DNA of 63,520 bases, counting the filler, from Atractiella rhizophila (Eukaryota): NCBI GenBank assembly GCA_021432655.1. It is 8 parts of 7 records of this genome, joined end to end, with 100 filler letters (N's around TTAATTAATTAA, not from the genome) between each part and the next. Parts side by side here need not be neighbours in the genome. Positions count along the whole stretch, not along the records: positions 47,964 to 54,091 come from MU271978.1; 7 more parts are not named here. One strand, given 5' to 3'. The translations under genes and the position numbers were made by a program. Shown here one piece after another: positions 15,289 to 58,100 of this stretch. Position 1 is the stretch's first letter. Every line of letters starts with the position of its first letter. The notes below the pieces were generated by a model. That model saw nothing but the letters and a program-made list of their open reading frames with translations, searched no databases and was not told the origin of the DNA.

Positions 15289-18200
15289 ATGGAAGAAACG
15301 ACCCAGCACCACCTCAACGAGCCTCACAGCGCCGTGAATCCCATTCCCAGCACCAACACGGCAGACTCGACGACAGCGACGACGACTCCCTCCGCTCCAA
15401 CGGGGACTACGAATGGCGAAGTGCGGAAGGACCCCATCACCGGCGGGGACGTGGCGCTGAAGTCCTTTGCGGACGCAGACGTCAAAACGACGATCGAGAA
15501 GAGCAAGGAAGGCCGCGCGAATCTGCTCTTCTACAAGTTCCCGCCTCCGGATTGGTCGCTCTTCAAGACTCGGACGAACGCGCTCATCAGCCAGTACCTC
15601 GCCTTCGTCTTTGTATCTTCTTCCCTCCTCCGGCTCGTCTCCAAGGGATACTTTTCGAGCTTCTTGCAGCTCGCACTCATTGCTGGAGGCGGGTATTATG
15701 TGCAGCAACAGGTGGCGAGGTTGGACGCGGAGGTCATGTTTGGGGGAAGTGAGGTGCAGAGAGGCGAAATGGCGTTGAGAGATGAGGTGCCGGAGAGCAC
15801 GGAGTGGTTGAATGCGTTTTTGGGAACGCTTTGGCCTATCATCAATAGCGACATGTTTGCGGGAAGCGCAGATATGATTGAAGGTCTGTCCCCGTCTATT
15901 CTTCCTTCTTCGTTTTCTTTTTGGCTGACTTGGTGAGACAGATATCATGCAACAGTCACTTCCCAAGTTTATCAAGATGGTCAAAGTAGCGTCTATCCAC
16001 CAAGGAACACGAGGAGTTCGCATCTTGCACATGAAGACTTTGAAAGACTCAGAGTTTTCCGACATCGAGAAAGAAAGGGAGAAGAAGTTGGCGGAAGAAG
16101 AGAAGAACTCGCTTCAGGCCATAGGAAGGGAGAAAGCGGCGAGCGAGAGGGCGGAAGAGAGGGCGGGGAAGTACGTCAACCTGGAACTCACCCTGGCGCA
16201 CCAGTTCGTGTCCCCTCCTTCCCTCCTTTTCACCTGTAGACATGATACGGAACAGTGCATCGCCCACCAAAAACCCGAAACGGCCGCAGAACCCGTCCAT
16301 CCAACTCCAGTTCTACATTGGTGCCATCGGCCAAACTATCAACTTACCCATCTGGGCTGAAATCCTCGAGCTGCTGGTCACTGTCAGGCTAAGGCTTCAA
16401 CTCACACCCGACCCGCCGTTCCTCAAGAACCTCACTTTCAGCTTCTCGAGCTTGCCAAAGGTCGGGGTGAGCGTCTTGCCCATGAGCAGGAGCTGTGAGT
16501 TTTTTCTTCTACACCCCACAATTGCTTTGTTCCATTCGCATTCGTTAATTATTTAAGGATAACGGAGTCCTGATTAGATTGGTGATGTGCTGTGCCTAAT
16601 GTCGTGGATTTACCGGTCATCAAAGGATTGGTACAGAGCTCAGTCGAGGTAGCAATGAAGGTTCGTTCACCACGCTCGTTCGAATCTCGCTTATTGAGGA
16701 GCGGGCGGACGAGTAGGAATTCATGGTGCCCAAGTCCATGACGCTCGATGTGGGAGAGATCTTATCTGGAGATGGAATCAAGAAGAAACTCGACACTTGG
16801 GGTGTCGTCTTCATTCGCTTGCACTCCGCCTCCAATCTGCACCCTCACGATCAAGCTGGTTCGACTTTTCATCTCCTTTCTCACCATTTGAGAATTGATT
16901 GTTTGGTGCTGGTGTGACAGGCAAATCCGACCCTTACTTCCTCCTCTCTTTCTCCAAATTCGGAAAACCTCTCTATTCGACCCGGGTGATTGAGNNNNNN
17001 NNNNNNNNNNNNNNNNNNNNNNNNNNNNNNNNNNNNNNNNNNNNNNNNNNNNNNNNNNNNNNNNNNNNNNNNNNNNNNNNNNNNNNNNNNNNNNNNNNNN
17101 NNNNNNNNNNNNNNNNNNNNNNNNNNNNNNNNNNNNNNNNNNNNNNNNNNNNNNNNNNNNNNNNNNNNNNNNNNNNNNNNNNNNNNNNNNNNNNNNNNNN
17201 NNNNNNNNNNNNNNNNNNNNNNNNNNNNNNNNNNNNNNNNNNNNNNNNNNNNNNNNNNNNNNNNNNNNNNNNNNNNNNNNNNNNNNNNNNNNNNNNNNNN
17301 NNNNNNNNNNNNNNNNNNNNNNNNNTAGGAAGCTTCCGAGTTTCGAGAAGCGTATCAGGGTTTGAAACTCGAAGTCGAACTCCCGATAGGGTTACTTTGT
17401 TACAGCAATTTAGGACACACACCCTTGCCTCTCCAACACTGTTTGGCAACTCTCGACGGCGTAGTCCTCTCCACTAAAGCTTCAGCAAGTTTTCGAGGTT
17501 GCAGGGGTTCAATTTTAACTCGTCCAAGAATCCTTCGACGCATAGCTACGAAGACTTGTCCTAGCTCTAGAACTAAAAGGGCATAGGCTGCGGTAGTCGC
17601 TACGATATTTTCAACCTATGGACGTCGGTAATGCAATGTCTGCAGTTAAGTTGAAGAGAGAGGGTCGTTAGGTTGTTTCACTCGCTCTTCCTGGCCCCTC
17701 TGCTTGTGTCGACCGTAAGAAGTTGCGAAGTGGCTACAACTCGACTTGTCACGGGTACTCGAAGAGCAGGCTCAGGGGAGGAGGAAGAGGTTTTGTCGCT
17801 GGCGCTTGAACCGGCTGGAGGTTAGTCCGTTCTTGAAAAGGCAAGGGCGTAACTTCTTTCGATGGCAGGTAAGGTTAGAGTTAGTCAAATAGTCGGCTCC
17901 CCACTGCCTACTGTGTGCTAACCGACACATTCGAAACTGCGCTCAGAACATCTACCGGAGTAGTAACTCTATTTCGAACGTTATCGACGAACCCCGCAGT
18001 AGAGGGAGAAGGAGGACAGGTTAGTTAGGTCGCAGTCGTAGAGATTTTGGCTGTTGATGTCGAGCACTTTGTGGTTGCTCCTATGGGAGGCGGACGAGGA
18101 GGCGTGGTTGCGAGTAGAAGAAGGAGACGAACATGCACAAGGATCGGAATACAGACGGCTCCAGGTGCTAGACTACGTGATACTGTCTCTACTGTGGCGA

Positions 18201-19176
18201 GCGATAGGGTCGTGTTGTTAGGCAGTTGGGGGGAGGAGCAGGTGTTGGTGTTGTCGCCTCCCTCCCTAATGCGTGCTATAAGACCTAGGCCTCCGCACGT
18301 GTTATGTAGGAAGAGGACGCGGACATTGAGGAAATTGAGACCCAAGAACAGGAAGTTTAGGACACTATAGGACCCTAGGCGCGGTAGGCAGGAGTCAAAG
18401 AGTAACTCCCGAGCTTACAGCATCTTGCGCTCCAGGGTTACGTTTCATGGGAACAGAGGTAGGGGGAACATACTAAGCTACCCCTTCTTTCGCTATACCA
18501 GAGAGGGAAGGCGGCGCTGTTTGGGCCACCAAGGGTTTACACCTGCCCGTGACGAAACGAAATTCGTACGCTTTTCGCATCCTCCCTCGTCGAACAATCT
18601 AAAGCTCGAGTGCTGCAGTGCTATCTTCTGGGTCACGTTTAAAAAGAAGTCTAAGCTTGCGGGATTCAACAAGCACGTATATGCCGTCGCGAATAAAAGA
18701 CTGGCGGACATCGTTGACGACCAACCAACGGATTTGGAGCTCGAGGTCGTACTTCCTAAATCTGGGAATAATGCTGAAGGGGATTCTGCTGGCTCATCGA
18801 GCGAGAGCGTATGCCCTCCTGCCGTCTACATGTCTTTAGGACAACGATTGATTTTGTGTTTGATGGACAGGAGGAAGATCTTAATGAGAATCTCGGCGAC
18901 AAAGAAGTGATTGGAAAGATCAAAGTCTCGGTCATCTTCCGTCGTGGTAGGACCACGGCACATTCAGACGATAAACAGGCAACAAGGGCATTGACGGATA
19001 CGTCAACGGGAAGTGACGATGTGCGCCACTTTTATTTTCCTCTTAGCAAGTTGAACTGATTAGTTGTGTAGGATAAGAATGTGGCTGGCAAAAAGAAGGG
19101 CTTTTTCGGAAAGCTCAAGAGCAAGGCTATGCCGAAGCTCGATGGACAGGGCCCTGGAGTAGAAAGCGAGGCGTAA
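15289..19176 (+). CDS. Mug190/tricalbin-like SMP + multi-C2-domain membrane protein; interrupted by an N gap and a reversed block
   Basis: PESTEWLNAFLGTLWPIINSDMF (SMP); LRLQLTPDPPFLKNLTFSF; GKSDPYFLLSFSKFGKPLYSTRVI (C2A). Reversed block supplies GTLHWDLAFY...PPDPEYPSGVISVIVHQIVDL...PSSYCKLYLNDEAIYKTR (C2B). Forward again from ~18492: GGAVWATKGLHLPVTKRNSAIF...YAVANKRLADIVDD...IGKIKVSVIFRRG, stop at 19176. Confidence 0.85.
17326..18491. other. Block written reversed but not complemented (holds internal exons of the Mug190-like gene)
   Basis: Reading the given bases right-to-left without complementing gives open frames with C2-domain motifs and GT-AG introns that fill the missing part of the flanking gene. 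Confidence 0.93.
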
Positions 19177-19433
19177 AATAAAGTACATGAGCGAGGATGC
19201 CGATGTTTCCAAAAGCGGTTGTGGTGTTTTCTCATGTTTCCGATGACCAAAGGACGACTTGAAAGGACTGCCGATAATTCGCGTTTCTCCTTTGCTTTGT
19301 GTATCATAAACAAACAGCATTGTAAATACGATCTACGGGAAATGAGCACAAATGGACATCTAGTTTTGCTCTCTCTCATTGTGCCTCATTATTCTCTTAT
19401 CCTTTCGCCATAACATAATGAACTACAGATTCC

Positions 19434-19958
19434 TCAAGCTAAATCGGCGAATCCAACAAGATTATAATCCTATGCACCGCATTCAGTTTGTTCGTTGAGC
19501 ACTGATGGGATAGAAGGTGAGGTTTACAGACCTGGTCAAATACTGTATAGGTATTCTGCATAAAAACGTCCCCCAGAATCCAACTTGCATCTCCCAGGCC
19601 CACGTCGAGACCAACGAGAGCGCCGACACACCGAGAGCTCCCCATGCTCACCCTTCCAAGATTAAAGTATTTAGTGTCCACAACCCACTCTTTACCATCA
19701 TCAAAAGTGAAACCCAGCTACACCAACCAACAAAGGGCAAATTCAGTTTCAAGTCTCTCTCAGACTGGAGAGGAGAGACACACAGTTGGGTTTGTGGCAC
19801 ATGGGAACGTGTAATAACCTGAGTTTCCATACTGTGCCGACCCAGTGACTTGATCCCAGAACGTGGTGGCGTCGGAAGGAGGAGCGACAATGATACTTGT
19901 TCCAGTATCAATGATGGCGTTGATGTACGCAAGAGGATTCCCATTCAAGTGAGCTAAA
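19434..19958 (-). pseudogene. 3' fragment (C-terminal lobe) of a pepsin-like aspartic protease
   Basis: LNGNPLAYINAIIDTGTSIIVAP...YYTFPC...WILGDVFMQNTYTVFD; 5' end cut at the duplication junction. Confidence 0.85.
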
Positions 19959-20463
19959 GTATATGCCGTCGCGAATAAAAGACTGGCGGACATCGTTGAT
20001 GACCAACCAACCGATTTGGAACTCGAGGTCGTACTTCCCAAATCTGGGAATAATGCTGAAGGAGACTCTGCTGGCTCATCGAGCGAGAGCGTAGGCCTCC
20101 CCCCTGCCGTCGACATATCGTTAGAACAACGATTGATTTTGTGTTTGATGGACAGGAGGAAGATCTTAATGAGAATCTGGGCGACAAAGAAGTGATTGGA
20201 AAGATCAAAGTCTCGGTCATCTTCCGTCGTGGTAGGACCACGGCGCATTCGGACGATAAACAGGCAACAAGGGCATTGACGGATACGTCAACGGGAAGTG
20301 ACGATGTGCGCCGCCTTTTATTTTTGCTCTTAGCAACGTGAACTGATTAGTTGCGCAGGATAAGAATGTCGCCGGTAAAAAGAAGGGCTTTTTCGGAAAG
20401 CTCAAGAGCAAGGCTATGCCGAAGCTCGATGGACAGGGCCCTGGAGTAGAAAGCGAGGCGTAA
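19959..20463 (+). pseudogene. Orphan duplicate of the last exons of the Mug190-like gene
   Basis: Copy of 18677-19176 with no upstream exons. Confidence 0.8.
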
Positions 20464-20721
20464 AGTAAAGGACATGAGTGAGGGTGCTGATGTTTTCAAA
20501 AGCGATTGTGGTGTTTTCTCATGTTTCCGAATGACCAAAGGACGACTTGAAAGGACTGCCGATAATTCGCGTTTCTCCTTTGCTTTGTGTATGATAAATA
20601 AACGGTATTGTAAATACGATCTACGTGGAATCAGTACAAATGGACAGCTCGTTATTCTCTCGTTGCGTCTCATTATTCTCAAATCCTTCGCTGTGTCATG
20701 ACACGATAAACTACAGATTCA

Positions 20722-21770
20722 TCAAGCTAGATCGGCGAATCCAACAAGATTATAATCCTATGCACCGCATTCAGTTTGTTCGTTGAGCACTGATGGGACA
20801 GAAGGTGAGGTTTACAGACCTGGTCAAATACGGTATAGGTATTCTGCATAAAAGCGTCCCCCAGAATCCAACTCGCATCCCCCAGGCCAACGTCGAGACC
20901 AACGAGAGCGCCGACACATCGAGAGCTCCCCATGCTCACCCTTCCTAGATTAAAGTATTTGGTGTCCACAACCCACTCTTTACCATCATCAAAAGTGAAA
21001 CCCAGCTACACCAACCAACAAAGGGCAAATTCAGTTTCAATTCCAAGTCAGACTGAAGAGGGGATGACACACAGTTGGGTTTGTGGCACATGGGAACGTG
21101 TAATAACCTGAGTTTCCATACTGTGCCGACCCAGTGACTTGATCCCAGAAGGTGGTGGCGTCGGAAGGAGGAGCGACAATGATACTTGTTCCAGTATCAA
21201 TGACAGCTAACAGAAGCAGACGCGCTTGAGACCAAAGACGCACGAATTCCCTCTTGATCTCCAAGACCTTCGGAAAACTGACGCCTCCAACTCTTGGCCA
21301 TCTTCATGAATCCCTCAGTCTCGTTATCGTCGTAGACAGCGCGGGCCTCCCTTGGATGCGACTCCTCATTCCGTTTTCGTGCATCCAACGCAGCTTGGTA
21401 CTTGTTGGCCACAAACTGAAGGTGGCCCTACTCGCCCTACATGAGTGATCATGCGTAAAAGTGGAGTGAGAGGACTCACCGAAACGGCAGAGAAGTTGAA
21501 TGTCCCGTCCAAATTAGTTGCTCCAGCCCAAACATGTTTGATGAGTGGAACGGAATATCCGACGTTACTGATGATGGCGGAGGGATCTGGTATCTGGAGA
21601 TCGAACACATTGGGATTTTGATGAGGGGAGAAAGTGTGATTTGTAGACGTGGCGTTCGAATTGGTGTCGTTGTTCGTTGAGGTCCCATTGATTGGAGAAA
21701 CGGAGGAGGACGAAGAAAGTTGAGCACCAGCCTGGATAACAAGGAGGAAGAGAGAGAGCATAATGTCCAT
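20722..21770 (-). CDS. Secreted pepsin-like (A1) aspartic protease lacking the N-terminal lobe; possibly a pseudogene
   Basis: Signal peptide MDIMLSLFLLVIQAGAQ, N-glycosylation-rich pro-region, then directly VIDTGTSIIVAPP...YYTFPC...WILGDAFMQNTYTVFD; only one DTG motif. Confidence 0.7.
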
Positions 21771-43712: not shown

Positions 43713-46700
43713 CAGCGCTATGATCACTGGCATCAAACCTCCCTTACTGGGATGTAGCATACTTGAATCCATTGTAGTGTCCTGTCTCTCCGTTGAAATG
43801 AGTTGGGATCATTCAAAGGTCTTTCCTTCACCAGAACATTCGACTCGGCGGCCGTGACATCTTAGTTATTAATGTATATCCCGTTTTGTCCACATCGTAA
43901 AAGAGCGGCGGCCGTTTTGGCTGTTGTCGTCGACATCCCACGCTCTTTGTACTTCATACTCTTTCCAGCAATGTAGGCACTCCATCTCAAACGTAAACAG
44001 TGAGATTGTGCATAACTCATTCCTTGTCAAGCACTGATGCTGTAGCGGACATAAGTGTGACTTCACCACCTTTGTCTTTGTGCATAGGAAGAAGGTACGC
44101 CATATTGCAGAGCTTTGCTTCTTTTGATTTCAGGCGTCGTTCATACATCTCCTTCTATATTCTCAGGCTACTGGAATTGCACTTGTATTTGTGATCAAGC
44201 GTCAGGCAGATCAACACATGGCGAATAAGCAAGGGGTTTTGGGAGATGTGACTGCCACTTCGTGTAAACTGATGCAAGAAAGAGAGCGAGAGAGCTCCTA
44301 CAACCGAGTTTGTCGCGTGCTTTCAATCGACACGTCAAGAATAAAGCAACTTTAATGGCAACAGTTGTACAGTTTTCTTCTTACTTTTGTCGCTTGTTGA
44401 CAACTTCAGTGGGGTATAAAGGTGAAAAAAGGAGCATATATCAGACAGCATTTCAACCAATAACGACAAGCTTAAGTAGAACGTTCGCACACTTGCAAGA
44501 AGAAGCGTGTAGTAACCAGGTAGAAGAATAAATGTCCACACGAACAGAGCAAGTTACTTTCAGGGCCATGATCGTTTTGCATATAGGACGATGATGACGA
44601 TGATATCATCGATTGAGCTCCATTCGAGGACAGCAATCCATATGCGGCTCTTCAGTTGATAGAAAGTATGTTGGATAAGGCACAAATTAGATCCTTACAA
44701 ATATATACTGCACCACTTCCTTTATACATTACACTTTCTTTCAACAGCTCCTCCCACCCAATCAAGACGCTGAAGCGCGCCGCTTCTCGTGGTAGGATTC
44801 AATAAACGTATGCTTCAACCAAAATGAGCGCTTTCACGTTCCACATCGTCCCAATTCAGGAAAGTCGGAGACCACAAATGCCAACTTTCCATCTATAAAG
44901 AAGCGCACCTGCTAGATGTCATAATGTCATACTGAGATCCAATCTCAGATTCTCTTTCCTTCCGCACCACCATTACAGTTATGGCCCTGTTGCTTCTAAA
45001 TGCTTCACGCACTCTACATAATCTCAATCCAGCTTGAATATTGCCACTCCTTTCCACCTTTCCTTTGCCTTTGGTTGGCAACACGGCTTTACTCTTTGGC
45101 TCATACCGACTGCAGCTCACAACAACGTCATCGCAACCTTGCTATCATCGGTACCGCAATGCCTCCGCCGCCAATTCACGAGCTTGACGGCACAAATCAG
45201 CAACAACCAAGTGCCTTTCGAAAGCCTTCGAGAGGCGTCTCGCCCAAGCCCATAAAAGTAGTATCAATATCGACCGAGCTAATGTCCAGCCAGAAAATAG
45301 AAGAGGCAGATGGGGAGCTGGAGCAGTTTAGGCAGGCAGTGGAGGAGGAGGTCACAAATGGACATTCCATGGGTGATAAGAGAGAGGGAAGCTCTAGTAG
45401 CTCTGGAAGCGTTACTGTGAGTTAATGTGTTTGATTGTGTGATTCTATTCCTGTTCGATAAAATCGCCTTCGGAAGACTTAGCTGTGAGGCCACAACACC
45501 GTGTCGTAGGGAAACACAGCGTCCAGACCAATGTTCGCTCGTTTGACTGCGTCGTATTACATGACGACCTTTATGTCTCTCTCTAGTTCACAATTTACCA
45601 CCGGAGTGAATAGATTGGACATCAAGAAGATAGGGTTGATCATACGGATGCTTTTTTCACTGCCAATCGAACCTTGACAGTGCATTTCTTTTACTGCCTG
45701 CATAAATTAAGTTCCTCATTCCTCAAGGGATTGAATCAAGTTGAAAGTACGGTAATCGACAAGATATGAGTTATTGATCTGGCATCATTGATCATGGCAT
45801 CGGATTGAACAGACAGCGTGCTGTGTTGACTGGAAAGAAGAAGCGCCGTGTGAGAGACCAAGGGGGAAACTCGCAACAGCGGCGCAATAATAGTACACAG
45901 GATGGGGAAAGTTTGTGTGCCTTGTAGTCACTGGTGTCATAATGCACATAACCCGCGACAGTCTTCTCATTTTTCGATTCTTCCCAACCCAAAGAAAGTG
46001 CAGATTTCGCGAAGCTCCATCCACGAAGATCTTTCTCGCACATTTCGAGTTAAATGCTCAATCAAAACCCCTTCCGCCATTTTAGCGGTGGGCATACAGT
46101 GATCGCCATGACATGCATTCAATTCAGAAAGGACATTGCTCATCCAATTGCTCACAGACGCTTGTTTCACCTCTTCCCCCAACCGTCAAACTAAGAAAGC
46201 GACGATCTCTCGATCCTCCTCGCCACGAAGCTTCCTCACCACCTCGAGGGAACGGGACCTCGTCGCGCTTCCGCACCCTCCCCCGATCCTTCACCCTCTC
46301 CCGCGCCGCCCGTCCAGCTGATCTCTCGTCTCTACCTTCCACTTCCTACGTTGACCTGCACCACGGCTCTGTCTCAAGGGCCACAAAGGACCTTCCTCCG
46401 CTCCCAGAGCACACAGCGATGGGGAGGGATCGGTCAAAGAGCTCAACAGCGCTATGATCACTGGCATCAAACCTCCCTTACTGGGATGTAGCATACTTGA
46501 ATCCATTGTAGTGTCCTGTCTCTCCGTTGAAATGAGTTGGGATCATTCAAAGGTCTTTCCTTCACCAGAACATTCGACTCGGCGGCCGTGACATCTTAGT
46601 TATTAATGTATATCCCGTTTTGTCCACATCGTAAAAGAGCGGCGGCCGTTTTGGCTGTTGTCGTCGACATCCCACGCACTTTGTACTTCATACTCTTTCC

Positions 46701-47863
46701 AGCAATGTAGGCACTCCATCTCAAACGTAAACAGTGAGATTGTGCATAACTCATTCCTTGTCAAGCACTGATGCTGTAGCGGATATAAGTGTGACTTCAC
46801 CACCTTTGTCTTTGTGCATAGGAAGAAGGTGCGCCATATTGCAGAGCTTTGCTTCTTTTGATTTCAGGCGTCGTTCATACATCTCCTTCTATATTCTCAG
46901 GCTACTGGAATTGCACTTGTATTTGTGATCAAGCGTCAGGCAGATCAACACATGGCGAATAAGCAAGGGGTTTTGGGAGATGTGACTGCCACTTCGTGTA
47001 AACTGATGCAAGAAAGAGAGCGAGAGAGCTCCTACAACCGAGTTTGTCGCGTGCTTTCAATCGATACGTCAAGGATAAAGCAACTTTAATGGCAACAGTT
47101 GTACAGTTTTTCTTACTTTTGTCGCTTGTTGACAACTTCAGTGGGGTATAAAGGTGAAAGAAGGAGCATATACAGACAGCATTTTAACCAATAACGACAA
47201 TCTTAAGTAGAACGTTCGCACACTTGCGAGAAGAGGTGTAGTAACCAGGTAGAAGAATAAATGTCACGAACAGAGCAAGTTCTTTCAGGGCCATGATCGT
47301 TTTGTATATAGGACGATGATGACGATGATATCATCGATTGAGCTCCATTCGAGGACAGCAATCCATATGCGGCTCTTCAGTTGATAGAAAGTATGTTGGA
47401 TAAGGCACAAATTAGATCCTTACAAATATATACTGCACCACTTCCTTTATACATTACACTTTCTTTCAACAGCTCCTCCCACCCAATCAAGACGCTGAAG
47501 CGCGCCGCTTCTCGTGGTAGGATTCAATAAACGTATGCTTCAACCAAAATGAGCGCTTTCACGTTCCACATCGTCCCAATTCAGGAAAGTCGGAGACCAC
47601 AAATGCCAACTTTCCATCTATAAAGAAGCGCACCTGCTAGATGTCATAATGTCATACTGAGATCCAATCTCAGATTCTCTTTCCTTCCGCACCACCATTA
47701 CAGTTATGGCCCTGTTGCTTCTAAATGCTTCACGCACTCTACATAATCTCAATCCAGCTTGAATATTGCCACTCCTTTCCACCTTTCCTTTGCCTTTGGT
47801 TGGCAACACGGCTTTACTCTTTGGCTCATACCGACTGCAGCTCACAACAACGTCATCGCAACC
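43713..47863. repeat. Near-identical tandem duplication, period ~2.73 kb (43713-45138 vs 46447-47863; second copy runs into the spacer)
   Basis: Both copies start CAGCGCTATGATCACTGGCATC and align for ~1.42 kb with few SNPs/indels; duplicate ORFs are visible in the ORF track. Confidence 0.97.
45159..46457 (+). CDS. Hypothetical low-complexity protein (2 exons), probably truncated by the duplication junction
   Basis: MPPPPIHELDG...SGSVT | intron 45417-46127 | KGHCSSNCSQ...RSKSSTAL-stop in frame; TATAAA at ~44894; the stop codon lies inside the start of the repeat copy. Confidence 0.5.
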
Positions 47864-48311
47864 NNNNNNNNNNNNNNNNNNNNNNNNNNNNNNNNNNNNN
47901 NNNNNNNTTAATTAATTAANNNNNNNNNNNNNNNNNNNNNNNNNNNNNNNNNNNNNNNNNNNNATAGGGATTTTGTCCTGATCGATTGCGATATGGATCG
48001 TTCTCGTCGTTTGGAAACCGCTGGTAGTGACCACTAGGATTCATGGGCTGTGACGGATTGGGTGGTCCTCTCTGCATCGTAGGATCCTCGACAGGAGCAG
48101 CGCTGCTTGTTGGGTTGTTCTGCCTCTGACGCCACTCACGGACCTTTCTTATAAAATCTTCGCTGGCCTGATATTCCGTTGTCCGAGTGTGGTCAATGTA
48201 AAGAAACACTGTAAGAGAAGTAAAATGTATACCGCTGCTACCGCAGGATCACTTTGTTAAAAAAGGACAACATTGTAGTGCACTGACGGTAAGAGACGTG
48301 TTTAATGTTGT

Positions 48312-49044
48312 TACGGTTAGCGGGAAGGAGGAGACAGAGAGAGTCAGAGCTGCGAAAGTGCAAGCTGTCCAAGCCGGTGTAAAAGCATGCCACTCACGAC
48401 TTGAATAAGATGGAGAGGAAAGCTCGGACAGCTAACGTCCTAGTAGTTGGCAGTAACGGAGGGACGTACCTGGTTGTCTTCATGCAGACTCTCTACTTTT
48501 GCAGTACGTCCGGTGTGAACTTCACTTGACCTTTGGCGAAAGGCCGGAAGGACCAACCAGAGACTAACATTTCTAAAGAAAAGCAACTATTTCACGTCCA
48601 GGAGGAAGTGCAAGGGAGTAAAGTTAACAAGCGAGACGTAACAGCCTGCAAAACCTAAATGTCAGCCGTGGCTCTAGAAACGAAGTCAACTGATACGTTT
48701 GTGAAAGACCTAGCAGTCGGAACTGTCTTTAGCGCTGTCGACAATGTCGGCGCCCAAACCGAACGAACCTGCCGCGAAAAGGATACGCTTTAGATTAGTA
48801 ACCGCATAGCTAAAGGCACAATCTAAGTCCTCTATACCATTGCAAAGGCTGACGTTTTCTACTGCTCGCTCGCTGTTCGGCAGTAGAACAAGATTAACGC
48901 TTCCTTCTTTAACACCCGTAGCTCTCAACCCCTCTTCCTCTCCTGCACCTAACCCGGTCTTAGACCCGGCTTTCGCGTTTCTACCCGTATAACTAACTTC
49001 TAACCTAAGCTCGACTCAACCTATTTCATACCTCTTCCGCGACT
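48312..49044. CDS. RRP46: Exosome complex component RRP46/EXOSC5 (RNase PH-like), readable only as the left-to-right complement
   Basis: Complement: ATG 48312, introns 48391-48439 and 48554-48598, TGA 49044; 212 aa MPIALPPLSLSVSTLSRSTGSATFSYGSSTVIASLHGPTEVRLRDENVMQATLEVNWKPLSGLPG...APRSLLQLTMQTL...AVTAAGLACLDGAFPMR. Confidence 0.88.
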
Positions 49045-49599
49045 CTGATAACTCTTAACAACTCTGTAACCTTCGACGGGTACCGCAGACTAGGACTCAG
49101 AGTAAGGTCCAGTGCAATTCCGGCAGTGCCTAGAGGGGACGTCAGATCCAGTAGAGTCTCAGAACGTAACGTAACTCGGTCTGACTCGGGATGATCACCC
49201 TCTTGTACACGACGAGGGCTACTCCGTTCACGCTACAGCGGGTGAAATTTAACGGCGCAAACAATCGGCGAGGGCTTCTCCACTCACACTCTTCTAACGG
49301 GTGAGATTAATGGAATGAAACGACCGACAGGTTCCGACACCCGCGAAAACGTTGACAGCTTTGTTCCAGTGGAAAGGCTACACCACAAGTTACCCGAGTC
49401 TCAAGCTCCCGTTCTTGCGAGTTGACTAGTTAGTTACTGTAGAAGGGCTTGGTACAGTTCGTCGTATAGTCCGGCCTTAGTCGAGAAACGCGGCACGTCG
49501 ACCACGAGCTCGCAACGAGAGAACAACTAAAACCACTTCCAGGCACGAGAGGACTCACCGCCCGACCCTAGTTTGTCGTCTCGGTAGAGGAAACAATGG

Positions 49600-51138
49600 T
49601 ACGAGCGACGGTTTCTAGGAAGTAACTATAGGACGTAGGTGACGTCGGCGTAGAAGTTCGTACGATCCTTCGCCCCTATAGTGCTTTGGTGGTATCGTAC
49701 CCTAGGATAACCCCATTCTTCACCAGGGACGTTCGGATCAACTACAATTGCTGACAACGAGTTTCCAGAAAGATCCTCTACACTGCTGATCAACGGGTCG
49801 TTCTTAAGTCCGACGCTTACAAATAGATTTTGCACCTTTTCCTTTCCTTGGAGTCCTCGTAGGTGGACAAGTGGTTAGAATAAACCCTGTCCGCTCGTCG
49901 CAGATCAAAAGCACAGTCTTGAGTCAGATTGGTAGAGTGTGTCCGCCAAATACCGGACAGAAGTAATCCTGGTGGTCTGGGAGGAAGACTCGACGTTACG
50001 TCTATGACAAGATCTAATCGTCAACTGTCCGGAACCCTGAAGGACGTTGTACCTGTGAACCAGCTGGACGCGTATATGGGTACAGTACTCTTGCTCCGTC
50101 TTCGAAACGTCCGAGCACAAAGCACCTTTTACGTTAGAGCGATTAGTCGATTTACATCCAGATGGACCTGACGAGGCTCAGAGTCTAGATGACCTAAACA
50201 CACCTCGTTGAGTTCAACCGAGAAAGAAAGACAATGTCATTAGCGTGGACTAGACGCAGCATCCTCCCGTTTCCGAACCCAAAAAAAGCACGCATGTAGG
50301 GTTTCGTGTTTTGTAAACTACTCGGAATATGTCCTTTCGTAAATGTCTAGTTCCAATGGGTCGTGGACTTCATTGGACCCACAGTCTGCCATTTCCACAT
50401 ATAGGAGCTGGAGAGTGACTTCGACGTGTGGCTCAACAAGCCCTATAGATGTCGGCGCTCAAGGGTGTGGAGCTGGAGAGATAGTAAAGTCAGAGTTGTG
50501 GAGGAGGAGTCGCTTGTCTTCTACTGCCGCCGCTATCTGCTTGGGTCTAAAGACCCCGATGACTACCCCTCCAGCTAGCTCCTTGTTGGAGAGGACGAGG
50601 TCGGTGGCGGAGGCACAGGGGTGGAAGAAGAAGAGTCGGGCGATGACGTTCCCGTCTATCTTAGGTCGCTCTTCGTTGAGGTAGTCACGGTGGTCTGCTA
50701 CTACCTTAAGCACAATCTGGCTACTTACGAAGCAGGTGGTTATGGTTATCGTTAGGTAGCAGGTGAAGGTTAAGACCACGATGAAGATTAGAAGGCGCCT
50801 GTTCGAGTTTGCTACGCAGGTGAAGGAGAGGTGAAGCTGCGCCTAACAGAAAGAGGAGTCTACCGCAAGAAGGAGCTTAACCGCAAGGAGGGACCTCCGG
50901 TTTCTGAGGGGGAGGTTCTGAGCTGGGAGCAATGCGTGTCTGAGGTCTTTGCTTGGGATAACGCGGTGGGTGTCTCAGTGGATGCGCTTTGTTACGGTTA
51001 CGCGGTGCTCTCAGAAGACCAAGAGTCGGAAGGCAGGATGGAGGCGAGTCGGGAGGTTGAGAAGGTTAGGTTGCTGAGGAAGATTAGAAGCATGAGGTGC
51101 AGTTCGGCTCGTGCGCTTGGGGGCACATGGTGCATGTC
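49600..51138. CDS. Hypothetical protein with two CxxC...H zinc-finger-like motifs and a long Ser/Pro/Asn-rich tail (complement-only reading); appears to continue on the minus strand at 48209-47964
   Basis: Complement: MLAAKDPSLISCIHCSRIFKHARKRGYHE...ELQCRYCSRLAVDRPWDFLQHGH...long last exon TDQGYPAPEVTWVSDGKGVYPRPL...; introns with branch sites. Confidence 0.65.
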
Positions 51139-51163
51139 NNNNNNNNNNNNNNNNNNNNNNNNN

Positions 51164-51724
51164 CTCACACGCGTTGGAGTGTTGGGCATAGCTCTAATGA
51201 CATGCGTCGAAGCAGGAACCCAAGATTTGAGCTGCTTGATTGTTGTTCCAGCCAGAATAGAAACTAATAGTTTTCCATCTAGAGCTTCGTGCATTTCTTG
51301 CAAAAGAGTTTTCGCTTGTTGAGGTTTACAGCTAGATAAACAATCAGTACGATTTATCGCTAAATCTTATAAACAACACACCAAAGGAGCACGACGTCGC
51401 TTTCCTTCACAGAAGCTAGATTTTCTCCCCTCCTAATCTCCACCCTTTCATCTCGAAAGACTTTCTTCAAATTCCGTACAGATTCGGGACGAGAAACGCA
51501 AGCGATAAAGCGGGATGGCAGGGCAGAAGGTTCGATCTCGACTGCAGGAGTAGAAGTGCCAGATGAGGACGGCGGCAGCCTCCCTGAAGATGGGGAAGAT
51601 AGAGAGTCTAATACACCTGAGAGGATGGAGATCCCCATAGTGCCACATCCTGCAAAACCTAGTCAGAATGCGCAAGATTGACGATCTCCAAGAGCCTACC
51701 CAGAACGCAGATGGTGTACGGCAT
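51164..51724 (-). CDS. PRO3: Pyrroline-5-carboxylate reductase, 5' half; truncated at gap
   Basis: MPYTICVLG-CGTMGISILSGV; SDVVLLCCKPQ-type spliced motif; GKLLVSILAGTTI; VIRAMPNTP. Confidence 0.93.
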
Positions 51725-51956
51725 TGTTTTGATCCCTTTTGATTTGAGAATCAGAATACAGGAATTGGCTTTGAAGCTTTGATGGCCTATTTCAAAGAAA
51801 CAGAAACAGATACAGCAGAAAACACCTGATATTGCTTTTGGTTTAATGGATGAGTCAAGGCAACTCATTCCATAACCCATCGTTCGGAACCGCTTCATCA
51901 CGTGGGAAATGTAAAAAAAGGTCTTTTTTCACAAATGGACCAATCTACAAGTAGCT

Positions 51957-53411
51957 CTACTCTTGAGATTCTGATAGTACGCTTATCTCCCTCTCCAAGA
52001 TCAACGCATCTCTCGGTTCGATCATTTTGTAATAATCCTTCACTTCTCCCTTCACGACGAATCCCATCTTTTCCCAGAACTCCTTCGACTCTGTATTCGA
52101 TAACTGGACGTGCACATAAAGCAGCTTAACTCTTCGCCTCGTCTTTGGCTTAGGAGCAGGCTTCGACTTGTCTGATGATGGTGGAGTGTGCCACGTCTTC
52201 TCAGCTTCGTCCACAATATGGTCCAGCATCATCTTCCCTAATCCTTTCCGTCGATAAGGTGCGAGGACACCGAGAGTCATAATGTACAGTTTCACATCTT
52301 CGATGCTTTCCTTCGGCTCTTCTTTCTTCCCTTGCCCTTTCTTTCCTTTCGAGCTAGTACTCGTCGTTGCGGATGTCGTTGGAGGCGGGGGGAGAGGATT
52401 GGAGGGTTGTACGGAGTCTGAGAAATCAGTCGCGGCCGGAGAGGAGTAGGCTTCTAAGCGAGCAGCGATTGCGCCAACGGGGACGTCGTTAAAATAGACT
52501 GGGACGAAGGGACTGTCAATACCTTTCTACAAGAGCTGGAGATCGATTGTAGGCCTGTCTCTTGTACCGAACATTGAACAGGTAGCAGATTTGACATTAC
52601 ATCGGAGCAAGATTTAATATAACAGCGGGTAGGCTGTACAATAAGCCATAACATGGTTGCGTCTGATCCATCATCCACGTCAACCCCCTTTCAGGATGGT
52701 GCTACGGCGATCCAATATGTAACAGCTTGGCAGGGCGTAGGCCCAACGCTCTTTGAGCATATTTCATACTGTATTTATGCTCCTTAATTCCTGCTACAGA
52801 AGCTCATGTGAGCAAAAGCTCGTGTAGGAACTTCATCAAATCAACAGTTATTGTAGCCAATACACAGCATAACAGGGAGGTAGAATAGGGTCACTGATTG
52901 TCAGGATGCCTCAAAGGGAGCAGGTGAACGATGTTATCACCCACAAAGGTGGGCAAGCACAAATTTTGGAAACTTGAGACGACTGAAAGCGACCACTACA
53001 CCCAAGCCTACAAAGCCAAGCACTCACCTAATCTGCAAAAATCTTCAAAATCTTCACGCAGCACGTCTTTATACCATTTATCAGAATATCTGGTATGGAA
53101 TAAGTCTCCTACCGCTTCGCTCAGTTCATCGCGCATACCTGACTGGAAAAAGCACATAGTTGAGCTTTCTCAGCGTCCCAATGTTGTTTCTTGTTCTTTA
53201 AACAGTTCATATCAGTTACTCCAATCATATATGACAAATGGCAAACCTACAAGTATCCCAGCTCGATCCTGTGTTTTGATCCAACTCGTTTTGCGGGTTT
53301 AGCTTCGGGAGTCTGCATGGAGGGGTAGACGTAAGACGTATCGGAGTCTGGAGTGCTGGCGATGTAGTTATCAAGGTCCTCTAGGGTAGTGAGAGAGGCG
53401 ATTTGAGCCAT
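51957..53411 (-). CDS. NAA50: N-alpha-acetyltransferase 50 (NatE catalytic subunit, GNAT); multi-exon
   Basis: RIELGYL-TRNNIGTLRKLNYVLFPVR-YSDKWY; VYFNDVPVGAI; KLYIMTLGVLAPYRRKGLG; LYVHVQLSN; YYKMIEPRDA. Confidence 0.93.
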
Positions 53412-54596
53412 TTCGTCGTTTACGCTAGCCTCCTGGCTCAAGGTTGCAACTTGCAACTTGCAAAATGCGTAACTTGGGATTTGAGGATAAGGATTCGCAT
53501 TGAACACGAGCATGTGGAGAAAGCTCAAAAATTATACATGGTATTCGTCGTCTTAAATGTGAGTGTTGATCATAAACCGGACATACAGTGGGAGTGTGAA
53601 GCTGTGATATCCTTCAATTGGCACTCGACATGCTTCGACGAAGTTTGTTCGTACAGGCTGTGAAGAAGACAACTCTCAGTTCATCAGAAAGCTTCGCAGA
53701 TTAGGGTGCATTGTCGTAAAAGCTCAAAGCAGAGAAGCACAGCAAGCAAGCAGAGTCGGGGCGAGTCAAAGTTCAAACGGAGATCACATCGTTGGTCCAG
53801 CTGCTGGTGCAGGTCATCTGCAGGAAGGTCAAACGACTGTATACGGGATGCTTATCTCGCAAGTGTTGCCCATATGCACCACATCTTGTAGACCAGAACG
53901 AAACTCGGGACAACGAGGAAGTGCTACTCCACATTATAATGAGTTTGCTGTTGTGGCTGCAAGGTAGGCATGCTCCGACCGGAAGATCACAACGAGGTAT
54001 CATGACACAAGAATGGGTGACTATCTACACGACGAAGAGGCAATTTACTTGTGTTCCAATTCATCCTTCTTCTGATCAACTTGCTTGATTTNNNNNNNNN
54101 NNNNNNNNNNNNNNNNNNNNNNNNNNNNNNNNNNNTTAATTAATTAANNNNNNNNNNNNNNNNNNNNNNNNNNNNNNNNNNNNNNNNNNNNATCCTCCAA
54201 TCTCTGTCGGTCGTATGTGACGCCATCTCTTATAGGATAGCAGTTGAAGGTGCTCTCACCACTTAAGCAGAGACTGCTTTAAGAGCTTGCTCGAAGGTCA
54301 CGAGAAGTTTTGATTTCTAGCCACTATGGTGGAAACTGGATCAAGAAGTTAGTCATTTGAATACAGCTGTTGATGAAAGATTGGACTCGAGAGTCTCTGA
54401 CAAACGGTAGCCGTAGCAGGTGCTGGTGACTCTGATAGGCAAATAGAAGCGGTAGTGCCCACTTGCTTACTAATACGAGGACGGGCAGCTAGCTTTCCGC
54501 TCTGGTGGAATTGACGACGTGCAGCTAGATTATGTAGATAGTGAATACCACTGACATTTATCGGTGTCCTTCTCTCTAACCTGAACTTTCGCTAGC

Positions 54597-55001
54597 GACG
54601 CCTCCTACGTTCTTGCGGTACCCTTTCCTATGAACAACGACTTTCTTGCACAAACTAAGATCGATTTCAACGCCATTCACAACGCCGTTCGAAATGCCAT
54701 CCTCAAGATTTTTGCTACTGACGACTCGAAATCGGTGCAGGCGACATTGTATCGCACATGTCAAGTGGTTTTAACGGAGTGTGACAATGGCGCGTTGTTT
54801 CTGCAACTGCATAGCTGACTTCGCAATTAACCTTTTCTATGTGCAGTGAACGAAATGTCAATGGCTCTCCCGAACAAGCATTACGTCCCAGTTGATCTTT
54901 CATTTTACAAAGGGTTGCAGAACACGAAGCCTGCTGATGCTGAGGTTTTCCAACCCATCGAAGTTTCAGGGCTTATCACTGCTACTGTCAAGAGGAGATG
55001 A
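54597..55001 (+). CDS. Uricase (urate oxidase), 3' exons; 5' part lost at spacer
   Basis: IFATDDSKSVQATLY; MALPNKHYVPVDLSFYKGLQNT...AEVFQP...SGLITATV. Confidence 0.92.
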
Positions 55002-55152
55002 CGGCACTGGGATCTGAAGAAGTGCGTAATCACGAAAGTCTGTATGTCCACCGTTGTGGAGAATAAACCACCGCATCCATTACAATGAAGTAAAATACGC
55101 TTCATATATCACATATGGATAGTAGTTCTGTACAACGTTCCGCTAAGTGTCA

Positions 55153-58100
55153 CTATTCTGAGTATTCATCAAGGTACTTCTCAAGCTCATTGACGGCCTT
55201 CTTCTGAAGCTGGATGAGCATGACTTTTAATTCCTGTGCACTAAACGAGGCCGGCGTTTCGCGATGAATCCTACGTAAGGTGTCGACAAGCTGCACCGTG
55301 GTTCACCTTATGACAAAGTCATAGTGATTGGCTTACCTCGAGCACCTGTCTTCGCCTTTCTATCACCATCACACTCTTCGAAGTCCTCTGATCTTCACCT
55401 GCTAGTTCGTCTAAACGCTGCGCGATGTCGATGGCTCTGTTGAGAACGCTTTGTGGCAATCTTGTGCCTCGAGCCAGTTCAATTCCTGGGGTTGAAAGTC
55501 AGAGCCTGGTCTGAATACGTTTCGGCTCACCATAATGAACATGATCTGAGGCACCGTCTTTGATTGTGTGTAGGAATCGAAGACCGCACGCCGTGTGGGC
55601 ACAGTTTGAGTCGACCTGTACACTCAACAAAGTGAGCAGTTTTCAAACGAAAGCAGAAGAAGATGAACTTCGCAAGACATTTGGAGGGTGACCACGGTTG
55701 GATATGCGTGCAGCGTCCTGACGACGATGTCAGGCGTTAGCAAAACCTGGCAACGCTACTGACGTGCAAAGCTCGCGAAAATGTGTAATAAAGAAGCAGA
55801 TTGCCTGCAGAGACTGTCAAATTTACGAATACTTGATTGGTACTAACTGACCGTGCTTTCAATTATTCGTTCTGCAATGGCATGGGCAATCCCAATTCCT
55901 TCTGCACTGCTTGTTCCCCGCCCAAGCTCGTCCACTATGACGAGCACCTTGCCATCTTCCTTGCACACCTCCAGTGCACTGAGTATCAGGCTCATGCTCT
56001 TCATCTCCATGGCAAAGGTTGATAGACCAGACTCGATGGAGTCGTCATTAGAGAGGCGAGATAGTATGGATGAAACCACAGCGAAAGAAGCGTATTCTGC
56101 TGGAACTAACAGAGCGCAAATCGCGCGGAGGACCAGTGGCAGGTTTTAAAGCTAAAGGCGAGTGGGGTAAGCTTACCAAAAGACCCGATCTAGCTCTTTA
56201 TCAACACGTAGTTTTGTAACCGATTGACACTGACCTGAGCCATGATATACAAAAGAGCGACCTGTTTAGGCATTCAGAACTAGTCCAGAAAGTATTCAGG
56301 TAGAGCTCGCCTGACGAATGAACGTGCTTTTCCCTGACATGTTGGGCCCAGTAATGATCTGGAAGGTGGAAGCATCGGTCACCCAAGTATCGCTTGAGTC
56401 GAATGAGCAGAGAAACAGCAAGAATGAATGAGAATGTCACTTCGCAACGAAATCCGCGTCTTCACGGCGCTCAAGCAACGGGTGTCGGCCTTGGAGACGT
56501 TCAGCCATATCACAGAGAGGTGCTACTGTTACCTCCTTTAATAGCCAAAGTTCCTGAACGCTACTATGAACGATGTATGATGTATGAGAGCAAACACACC
56601 TGTAAATTCTGGTCTCGTATACTCGTATTTCGAGGCTAGATCGGCAAAACTAAAGGATGTTATAGAACAAGTGGCACAGGTGGGACTACTTACGATGCCA
56701 ACATGTCGAGCAGGGCTATTGCTTCAGAGCACTGGTACAATACCGAAATATCGGTAGAGATGTGATCATTCAGCATCTCTAGCGTCCTGCCAAAAAGGTG
56801 AGTTTTAACTTCTTCTTGAAGGGTGAGCCAATTGGCGTACTGATCACTCAGCAGGAGGATTTCATGCATTGAGTCTGTGATTTTTTGATTCTTCTTTTTC
56901 TGTACCATATTTGAGGAGAGAATGCGAAAAACTGCAATGGGCTCACAAGTTCCAAGGAACTGAAATACGTCTTGCCAGCTTTTTTGGACTGTCAAATTGT
57001 CAGCATGGTCCGACAAAGACAGAATTCTTACAATATCTTTAAATCCCAGTTTCTCTAATACCCTCCTGTCATCGATGTCTTCGTTTTTAGAGACAAACTG
57101 ATATCCATTTTTGGAGTATTGCAAAGCAATTTCAAACTTGTGCGCTTGAGACAATTTCTCTGCAAGCTCAAAACAATCCGTCACATTTTCGTTGAAAGTT
57201 TCACGAGCAACCTTGAGTTACGAGAAGTCAGAACGGCAAGCAAGGTGATCTAGAGACTAACATCTAGGAGCAGATTTTTCTTGGGTTTCACTGCTCGTAT
57301 CTTTTGGTTTTTTCCAAAAGCTGCATATCTCCACGTGCTCGCCTCTTTTTCATCGCTGAGAATGTCGTCGATAGACTTCAGCATGTCCCCCAGTCTTTTG
57401 GTGTTGAAGGATCGTCTTGATCATAGTAAGAAGGTGGCTTCGACAACCTGATAGCGATTTCGCGAGCAAAGGTAATGCCCTGTGTTCACATGCATTTAGC
57501 AAGGAAGGGCAGATATTTTTAATTCTACCTGAGAAAGGTTTTCAAATTGAGAAATCTCTGGATTTTCTGGCCTGCGAGTGTGGCAGGATCCTGCTTCACG
57601 CGAAGGACGGGCGACGGCGAACGAGAAGTAATGAGCGAGCCAACTAGCTTATCCAAGTCTATATTTTTCAATCTTCACGAAATGTCAGTATTATTCAGAC
57701 AGATATTAAGTGCATACGTGGATAAAGACTTTCGGATGGCGATGAATCTTTCTTCCTTTCCAACCAATTCTTCCACCTGTCGCATCCGTGAGCATTAGCG
57801 AGGGCCAGGGGATGGGAACTGACAACGTCAAGTCGAGCTTCGATTGTTTCTGTCGATGTTGAAGGACTTAGGATGTTTGCACGAAGCTGAGGAAATATGT
57901 CATTCAGGTCCAAGTGACCGTGAAAGTCTCACAAGACGCGTAGCCATCCTGAAAGTATGTCAGCACTTGCTTCGTGCAAAGATCGGAGAGCATACGGTGT
58001 GAAGCAATGGTCCAGTAAGCCGAGCAAGGTTTGTTTACTTTTTGGGTCCACGAGCTAGCCCCATTGTTCAAAGAGTCAAACGACAGAACTGGCTTACATT

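Follow-up and report, generated by a model that had tools for sequence, protein, structure and literature searches.

Why should a gene of Atractiella rhizophila be legible only when the deposited letters are complemented without being reversed? The question is raised by the window, the whole stretch of DNA analysed here (63,520 nucleotides), in which contigs are chained by seven 100-letter spacers (N44 + TTAATTAATTAA + N44). Our reading, to which we assign a probability of about 0.95, is that two pieces of the real genome, at 48194–51138 and 17326–18509, are written in this record in reverse order and uncomplemented, that the record is in error here, and that the error hides a gene related to RNase PH.

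A gene model in the plain complement

The initial annotation had claimed a gene at 48312–49044 that exists only in the plain complement, read from left to right, with an ATG, two introns of 49 and 45 nt, a TGA and a product of 212 amino acids. Each of these elements was reproduced. The exons lie at 48312–48390, 48440–48553 and 48599–49044, and are separated by a first intron of the form GTGAGT..CAG (48391–48439) and a second of the form GTTGGT..CAG (48554–48598); the TGA ends at 49044. The spliced coding sequence of 639 nt contains all three of the motifs LSRxxGSATFSYG, ASxHGPxEVRLRDE and ATLEVxWKPxSG. The lengths of the introns agree with those of the introns (49–55 nt) that appear as contig joints in the right flank.

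Open reading frames of at least 100 amino acids are concentrated in this mirror reading of 48211–51138. Eight occur in the forward complement-only direction and two in the reverse complement of that reading, and together they make up ten of the 13 mirror-reading ORFs listed over 44000–56000; the true strands of 48211–51138 hold three. A Pfam family was found in none of the nine true-strand ORFs of the block.

Relationship to RNase PH

Reference sequences came from archaeal genomes found via a 16S primer, in which the RNase PH genes were located via PF01138 (loci L121–L131). Whether the complement translation belongs to the RNase PH family had been set as the check on the gene call, and the comparisons with archaeal references bear it out. 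In a phmmer comparison with 45 archaeal ORFs, the 212-residue product matched Rrp41-type sequences only (best E values, 2.1e-14 and 4e-14), and no Rrp42-type ORF among the 45 was matched. A profile built from nine archaeal Rrp41 sequences matched two of 1,010 targets, namely the spliced product (E value, 7.2e-14) and its own exon 3 (3.1e-07). The controls were clean: no match to the same profile occurred among the 457 true-strand ORFs of the window, the 201 decoys (reversed or shuffled) or the other 350 mirror ORFs. An Rrp42 profile (five sequences) gave no match at E ≤ 10 among the 1,010 targets. In tblastn searches, four of the six RNase PH queries matched 48439–48861 in the mirror reading and none matched the true reading. 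These results demonstrate the relationship to RNase PH, and the earlier claim that the true strands encode nothing recognisable holds, given the silence of both Pfam on the ORFs of the block and the Rrp41 profile on those of the window.

On sequence comparison, the hidden gene is thus predicted to encode an RNase-PH-family, Rrp41-like subunit of the exosome ring, and the subunit appears closer to the Rrp41 type than to the Rrp42 type. The product aligns with archaeal Rrp41 (L121, L122, L123 and L125; P0001–P0120) over 206 of its 212 residues, with the E values of order 2e-14 and 7e-14 given above, but at only 19–26% identity. It has also lost the phosphate-binding and catalytic block of active RNase PH enzymes: where all four archaeal Rrp41 sequences shown have ADGGTR, the product has SGSSAL in the aligned columns. 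It lacks the N-terminal arginine-rich motif as well. Because the ADGGTR block and the N-terminal motif are both missing, we infer that the subunit is structural and non-catalytic, and that phosphorolytic activity is unlikely.

Within the Rrp41 clade, the gene is most likely Rrp46, as judged against archaeal references only. This call is made because of the length of the product (212 amino acids), its divergence from archaeal Rrp41, the loss of the active-site block and a likeness to EXOSC5, the ATLEV...GLPG motif of the product resembling human EXOSC5. Like Rrp46/EXOSC5, a non-catalytic ring subunit of the eukaryotic exosome, the product would consist of one RNase PH-like domain over its whole length, be of the Rrp41 type, be short, have lost the phosphate-site block and carry the motifs quoted above; it differs in that its gene, in this record, can be read only after complementing without reversing. 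The loss of the ADGGTR block is common to other inactive eukaryotic subunits and does not single out Rrp46.

Another paralogue of the Rrp41 clade, either Rrp41/Ski6 or Mtr3, is an unlikely competitor, as the references comprise archaeal Rrp41 and Rrp42 only, and Rrp41, Mtr3 and Rrp46 would all match a profile of the Rrp41 type. Against such a paralogue stand the identity of 19–26%, the replaced ADGGTR block, the lack of the N-terminal arginine-rich motif and the length of 212 amino acids. Eukaryotic Rrp41 is much nearer to archaeal Rrp41 than this, and Mtr3 is longer; together with the presumed EXOSC5-like motif, these expectations also speak for Rrp46. A homologue search with a Thorarchaeota Rrp41 returned Asgard Rrp41 only among the matches listed (best 120 of 7,698). 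A correctly written copy of the locus was sought in metagenome contigs with an exact 61-nt flank pattern and with the GNAT-like protein encoded nearby, and none was found.

A backwards-written block beside a scaffold gap

The hidden gene lies within a block of 2,945 nt (block 2, 48194–51138, no strand assigned) that is bounded on the left by true sequence, through 48193, and on the right by a scaffold gap of 25 Ns (N25). Contig ends and a protein map show that the text of this block is the true sequence in reverse order, uncomplemented, and the polarity score described below agrees.

The contigs come from four public runs and were aligned to 47964–54091; one set (X1) is DNA-like and two (X3 and X4) are spliced and RNA-like. 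These are Logan contigs rather than raw reads, and the first 30 run-on letters of each contig were considered. The best-matching runs contain 0.40, 0.39 and 0.27 of the words of the stretch. Contigs of X1, X3 and X4 fit the deposited text over 47964–48194 and then diverge from it for 30 letters, and these letters reproduce, in reverse, the text that starts at 51108 and ends at 51137 (30/30, 29/30 and 30/30, respectively). The true sequence beyond 48193 is therefore the far end of block 2, reversed, and the junction at 48194 is fixed to within at most one ambiguous base. Contigs of all four runs leave 48374–51038 uncovered, and this part counts as evidence neither way.

The second line of evidence is P0131, a protein of 685 amino acids whose source name is Atractiella rhizophila hypothetical protein and which matches the left flank at 100% identity. 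It is the product of a Ser/Pro-rich gene that the deposited text splits in two. The first 431 codons, with their introns, occupy 49600–51138 in the mirror reading (P0131 residues 1–431 map to complement-only 49600–51137, with seven residues lacking a match). Residues 432–508 belong to a part at 47964–48193 on the minus strand, where they map to 48194 down to 47964 with 100% identity over 77 amino acids; the first base of codon 432 sits at 51138, and the gene is cut at the contig end, 47964. Once the block is un-reversed, residues 431 and 432 are 0 nt apart. Because the two parts of P0131 become contiguous and the run-on letters of the contigs match, block 2 is 48194–51138, with the deposit being the true text reversed in place.

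One result counts against this clean picture. Among the five P0131 introns in the block, only two were canonical GT..AG in a crude check, which favours the fewest mismatches first; the P0131 reference, moreover, differs at nearby residues. We put the shortfall down to the method and to these residue differences. Block 2 is not a mirrored copy of sequence found elsewhere in the window, according to a mirror-versus-true comparison within it.

The initial annotation had placed the block at 48210–51138. Its end stands, and its start moves by 16 bases to 48194, as both the contigs and P0131 require; 48194–48209, which looks like the end of a true-strand exon, is part of the reversed text. Several alternatives tied to the former start fall with it. 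A frame of 272 codons at 50323–51138, which might have been joined in frame to an exon at 48209, was rejected, as the boundary is at 48194 and the last 33 codons lie in a different frame, after an intron. A true-strand acceptor at 48210–48220 with an ATG near 48273, starting a neighbouring gene, is excluded by the contigs and the protein map. Complementing the block in place was also rejected as a repair: it runs into a stop within three codons of the junction at the boundary 48210 and within seven codons for all boundaries tested between 48195 and 48218, and both P0131 and the protein used for the other block (P0132, below) demand reversed order.

The restored locus

With block 2 un-reversed, the locus comprises three ordinary genes on one strand, in the order GNAT-like, RNase-PH-like and the Ser/Pro-rich P0131 gene, with a spacer of 555 nt between the second and the third. 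The GNAT-like gene (assigned by Pfam) lies to the right of N25 (51139–51163, no strand assigned), and transcript contigs run from it into the gap. One DNA-like contig of X1 and RNA-like contigs of X3, X4 and X7 extend before 51164 and 51169, and the letters beyond these positions have no counterpart in any reading of the window. The assembly thus lacks one exon or more of the GNAT-like gene, and the 25 Ns understate the true gap, which is longer.

Spliced contigs in this flank reveal minus-strand introns of 49–55 nt at 51332–51381, 51649–51698, 53090–53138 and 53196–53250, and they also skip 529 nt at 52499–53027. Elsewhere in the window, a direct repeat of 1.4 kb (43713–45138 and 46447–47863; 98.6% identity) has a second copy that stops exactly at a contig end.

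A second reversed block

Apart from the spacers, the window contains only two runs of N: N25 and a scaffold gap of 331 Ns (N331, 16995–17325, no strand assigned). Each of the two has exactly one adjoining reversed block. The block beside N331 (block 1, 17326–18509, no strand assigned) is 1,184 nt long, lies directly to the right of the gap and was revealed by the polarity score. It carries codons 516–817 of a MUG190-like SMP/C2 gene.

The evidence for its extent is a map of P0132, a protein of 1,005 amino acids from the same source species with a C2 domain and a MUG190-like SMP domain. Residues 1–460 map to the correctly written 5′ part of the gene on the plus strand (15289–16994), and the gap swallows residues 461–515. 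Residues 516–817 then match exactly when the text is read plainly in reverse, starting at 18509 and ending at 17326, and residues 818–1005 map to the correctly written 3′ part, again on the plus strand (18510–19173). After block 1 is un-reversed, residues 817 and 818 are 0 nt apart, and all four introns inside the block are GT..AG. P0128, a distant homologue that was one of ten weak matches in a protein search with a MUG190 exon, follows the same order as P0132 across the block. The gene is thus split into true, reversed and true parts, the same fault as in block 2. Ends for block 1 at 18654 (a k-mer change point) and 18676 (a repeat boundary) were considered and discarded, as the exact protein map places the boundary at 18509/18510.

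Just beyond, tandem near-copies at 18677–19914 and 19959–21203 (93% identity) each contain the 3′ end of the MUG190-like gene and a fragment of an aspartic protease on the minus strand. The second copy (19959–21203) is the nearer to P0132 (96–100%), and the pair look like two haplotypes placed consecutively.

Polarity of the text

DNA obeys reverse-complement symmetry and not reversal symmetry, so normal text should score positive when each k-mer is weighed against the same k-mer reversed. We calculated such a score with 5-mers, taking frequencies from the window itself, in windows of 400 nt. All 34 of the 400-nt windows that lie wholly inside blocks 1 and 2 were negative (mean, −45.5), whereas only 12 of the 579 outside them were (mean, +33.4). 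The score parts reversed from normal text cleanly. Weakly negative values at 501–1200 and 54101–54800 raised the possibility of further reversed blocks, but both segments read as normal true-strand genes. The minus strand of 300–1300 holds ORFs that, by eye, resemble the C-terminal half of a 2-oxoacid dehydrogenase E1 beta subunit; the score dips there without a reversal.

Nature and cause of the fault

Inversion and recombination yield the reverse complement, never a reversed, non-complemented strand. Because reversal without complement is impossible by either process, the blocks are a fault of the record. The proposal that the polarity is an artefact is borne out twice over: past 48194, contigs from three runs carry on as the far end of block 2 read backwards, and two named proteins from another source of the same species are collinear with the locus only once the blocks are un-reversed. 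The fault resembles ordinary scaffold misorientation, in which a contig is placed as its reverse complement, in being an error of orientation at a scaffold gap. An ordinary misoriented contig, however, is still legible on the other strand, whereas a reversed block is legible on neither and is missed by gene finders and BLAST.

As to the software, we are evenly divided over the following cause, which we prefer to the others considered. A gap-closing or contig-extension step may build an extension outward from the end of a contig, and the extension would then be written into the record unturned. Block 1 lies to the right of its gap and block 2 to the left, which would be explained if one scaffold were later flipped whole. 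We favour this cause because each block forms the contig end next to a gap and is joined to the rest of its contig without a missing or doubled base.

A tentative second explanation is that the blocks were separate contigs in minus orientation, which the scaffold writer complemented without reversing or reversed without complementing. This is a classic programming slip that yields exactly a deposit equal to the true text reversed, and blocks occur only in multi-piece scaffolds, the six single-piece contigs of the window being clean. The junctions tell against it: residues 431/432 and 817/818 are 0 nt apart and at most one base is ambiguous at 48194, with no N and no remnant of an overlap, whereas two separate contigs are usually joined across a gap or by an overlap. 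Had an overlap been trimmed from a mirrored contig, moreover, duplicated sequence would be left, and none is seen. Separate contigs fit these seamless junctions less well than an unturned extension does.

It is improbable that the reversal is confined to the copy analysed here and absent from the public record, as sub-blocks alone are reversed, each ending exactly at an N gap, which looks like the work of assembly software and not like a control planted at the level of the window. That the mirror polarity belongs to the DNA of the organism is refuted by the run contigs and the P0131 map and has practically no probability left: in three independent runs, contigs cross the junction in the ordinary orientation, a protein of the species from another source is collinear only after un-reversing, and a reversed, uncomplemented copy is chemically meaningless given the polarity of DNA strands.

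Consequences for the assembly

Reversed text amounts to 4,129 letters, or 6.5% of the 63,520 in the window (N counted), and affects both of its gaps. With the fault present at both, the whole assembly needs screening. It is an open wager, with the odds level, that the fault is systematic and that every scaffold gap of the assembly may carry one backwards-written flank. If so, a percent-level share of the record would be illegible and many genes would wrongly seem missing or truncated; public assemblies of other genomes produced with the same software could share the fault, and a k-mer polarity score would find them. Among the matches listed in a literature search on reversed-not-complemented sequence, none concerned assembly faults, and among those listed for Atractiella rhizophila and genome, none was a genome paper by its title.

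Neither gene finders nor BLAST nor read mappers can see a block that is reversed and uncomplemented, whichever strand they search. In the record as deposited, a gene of an essential type seems absent and two neighbouring genes seem truncated, so that comparative studies could report false gene losses. The finding has practical value, for annotation, and its biological interest is low. There is no new biology here: the gene very probably encodes an ordinary exosome subunit, and its mirror polarity is a software fault.
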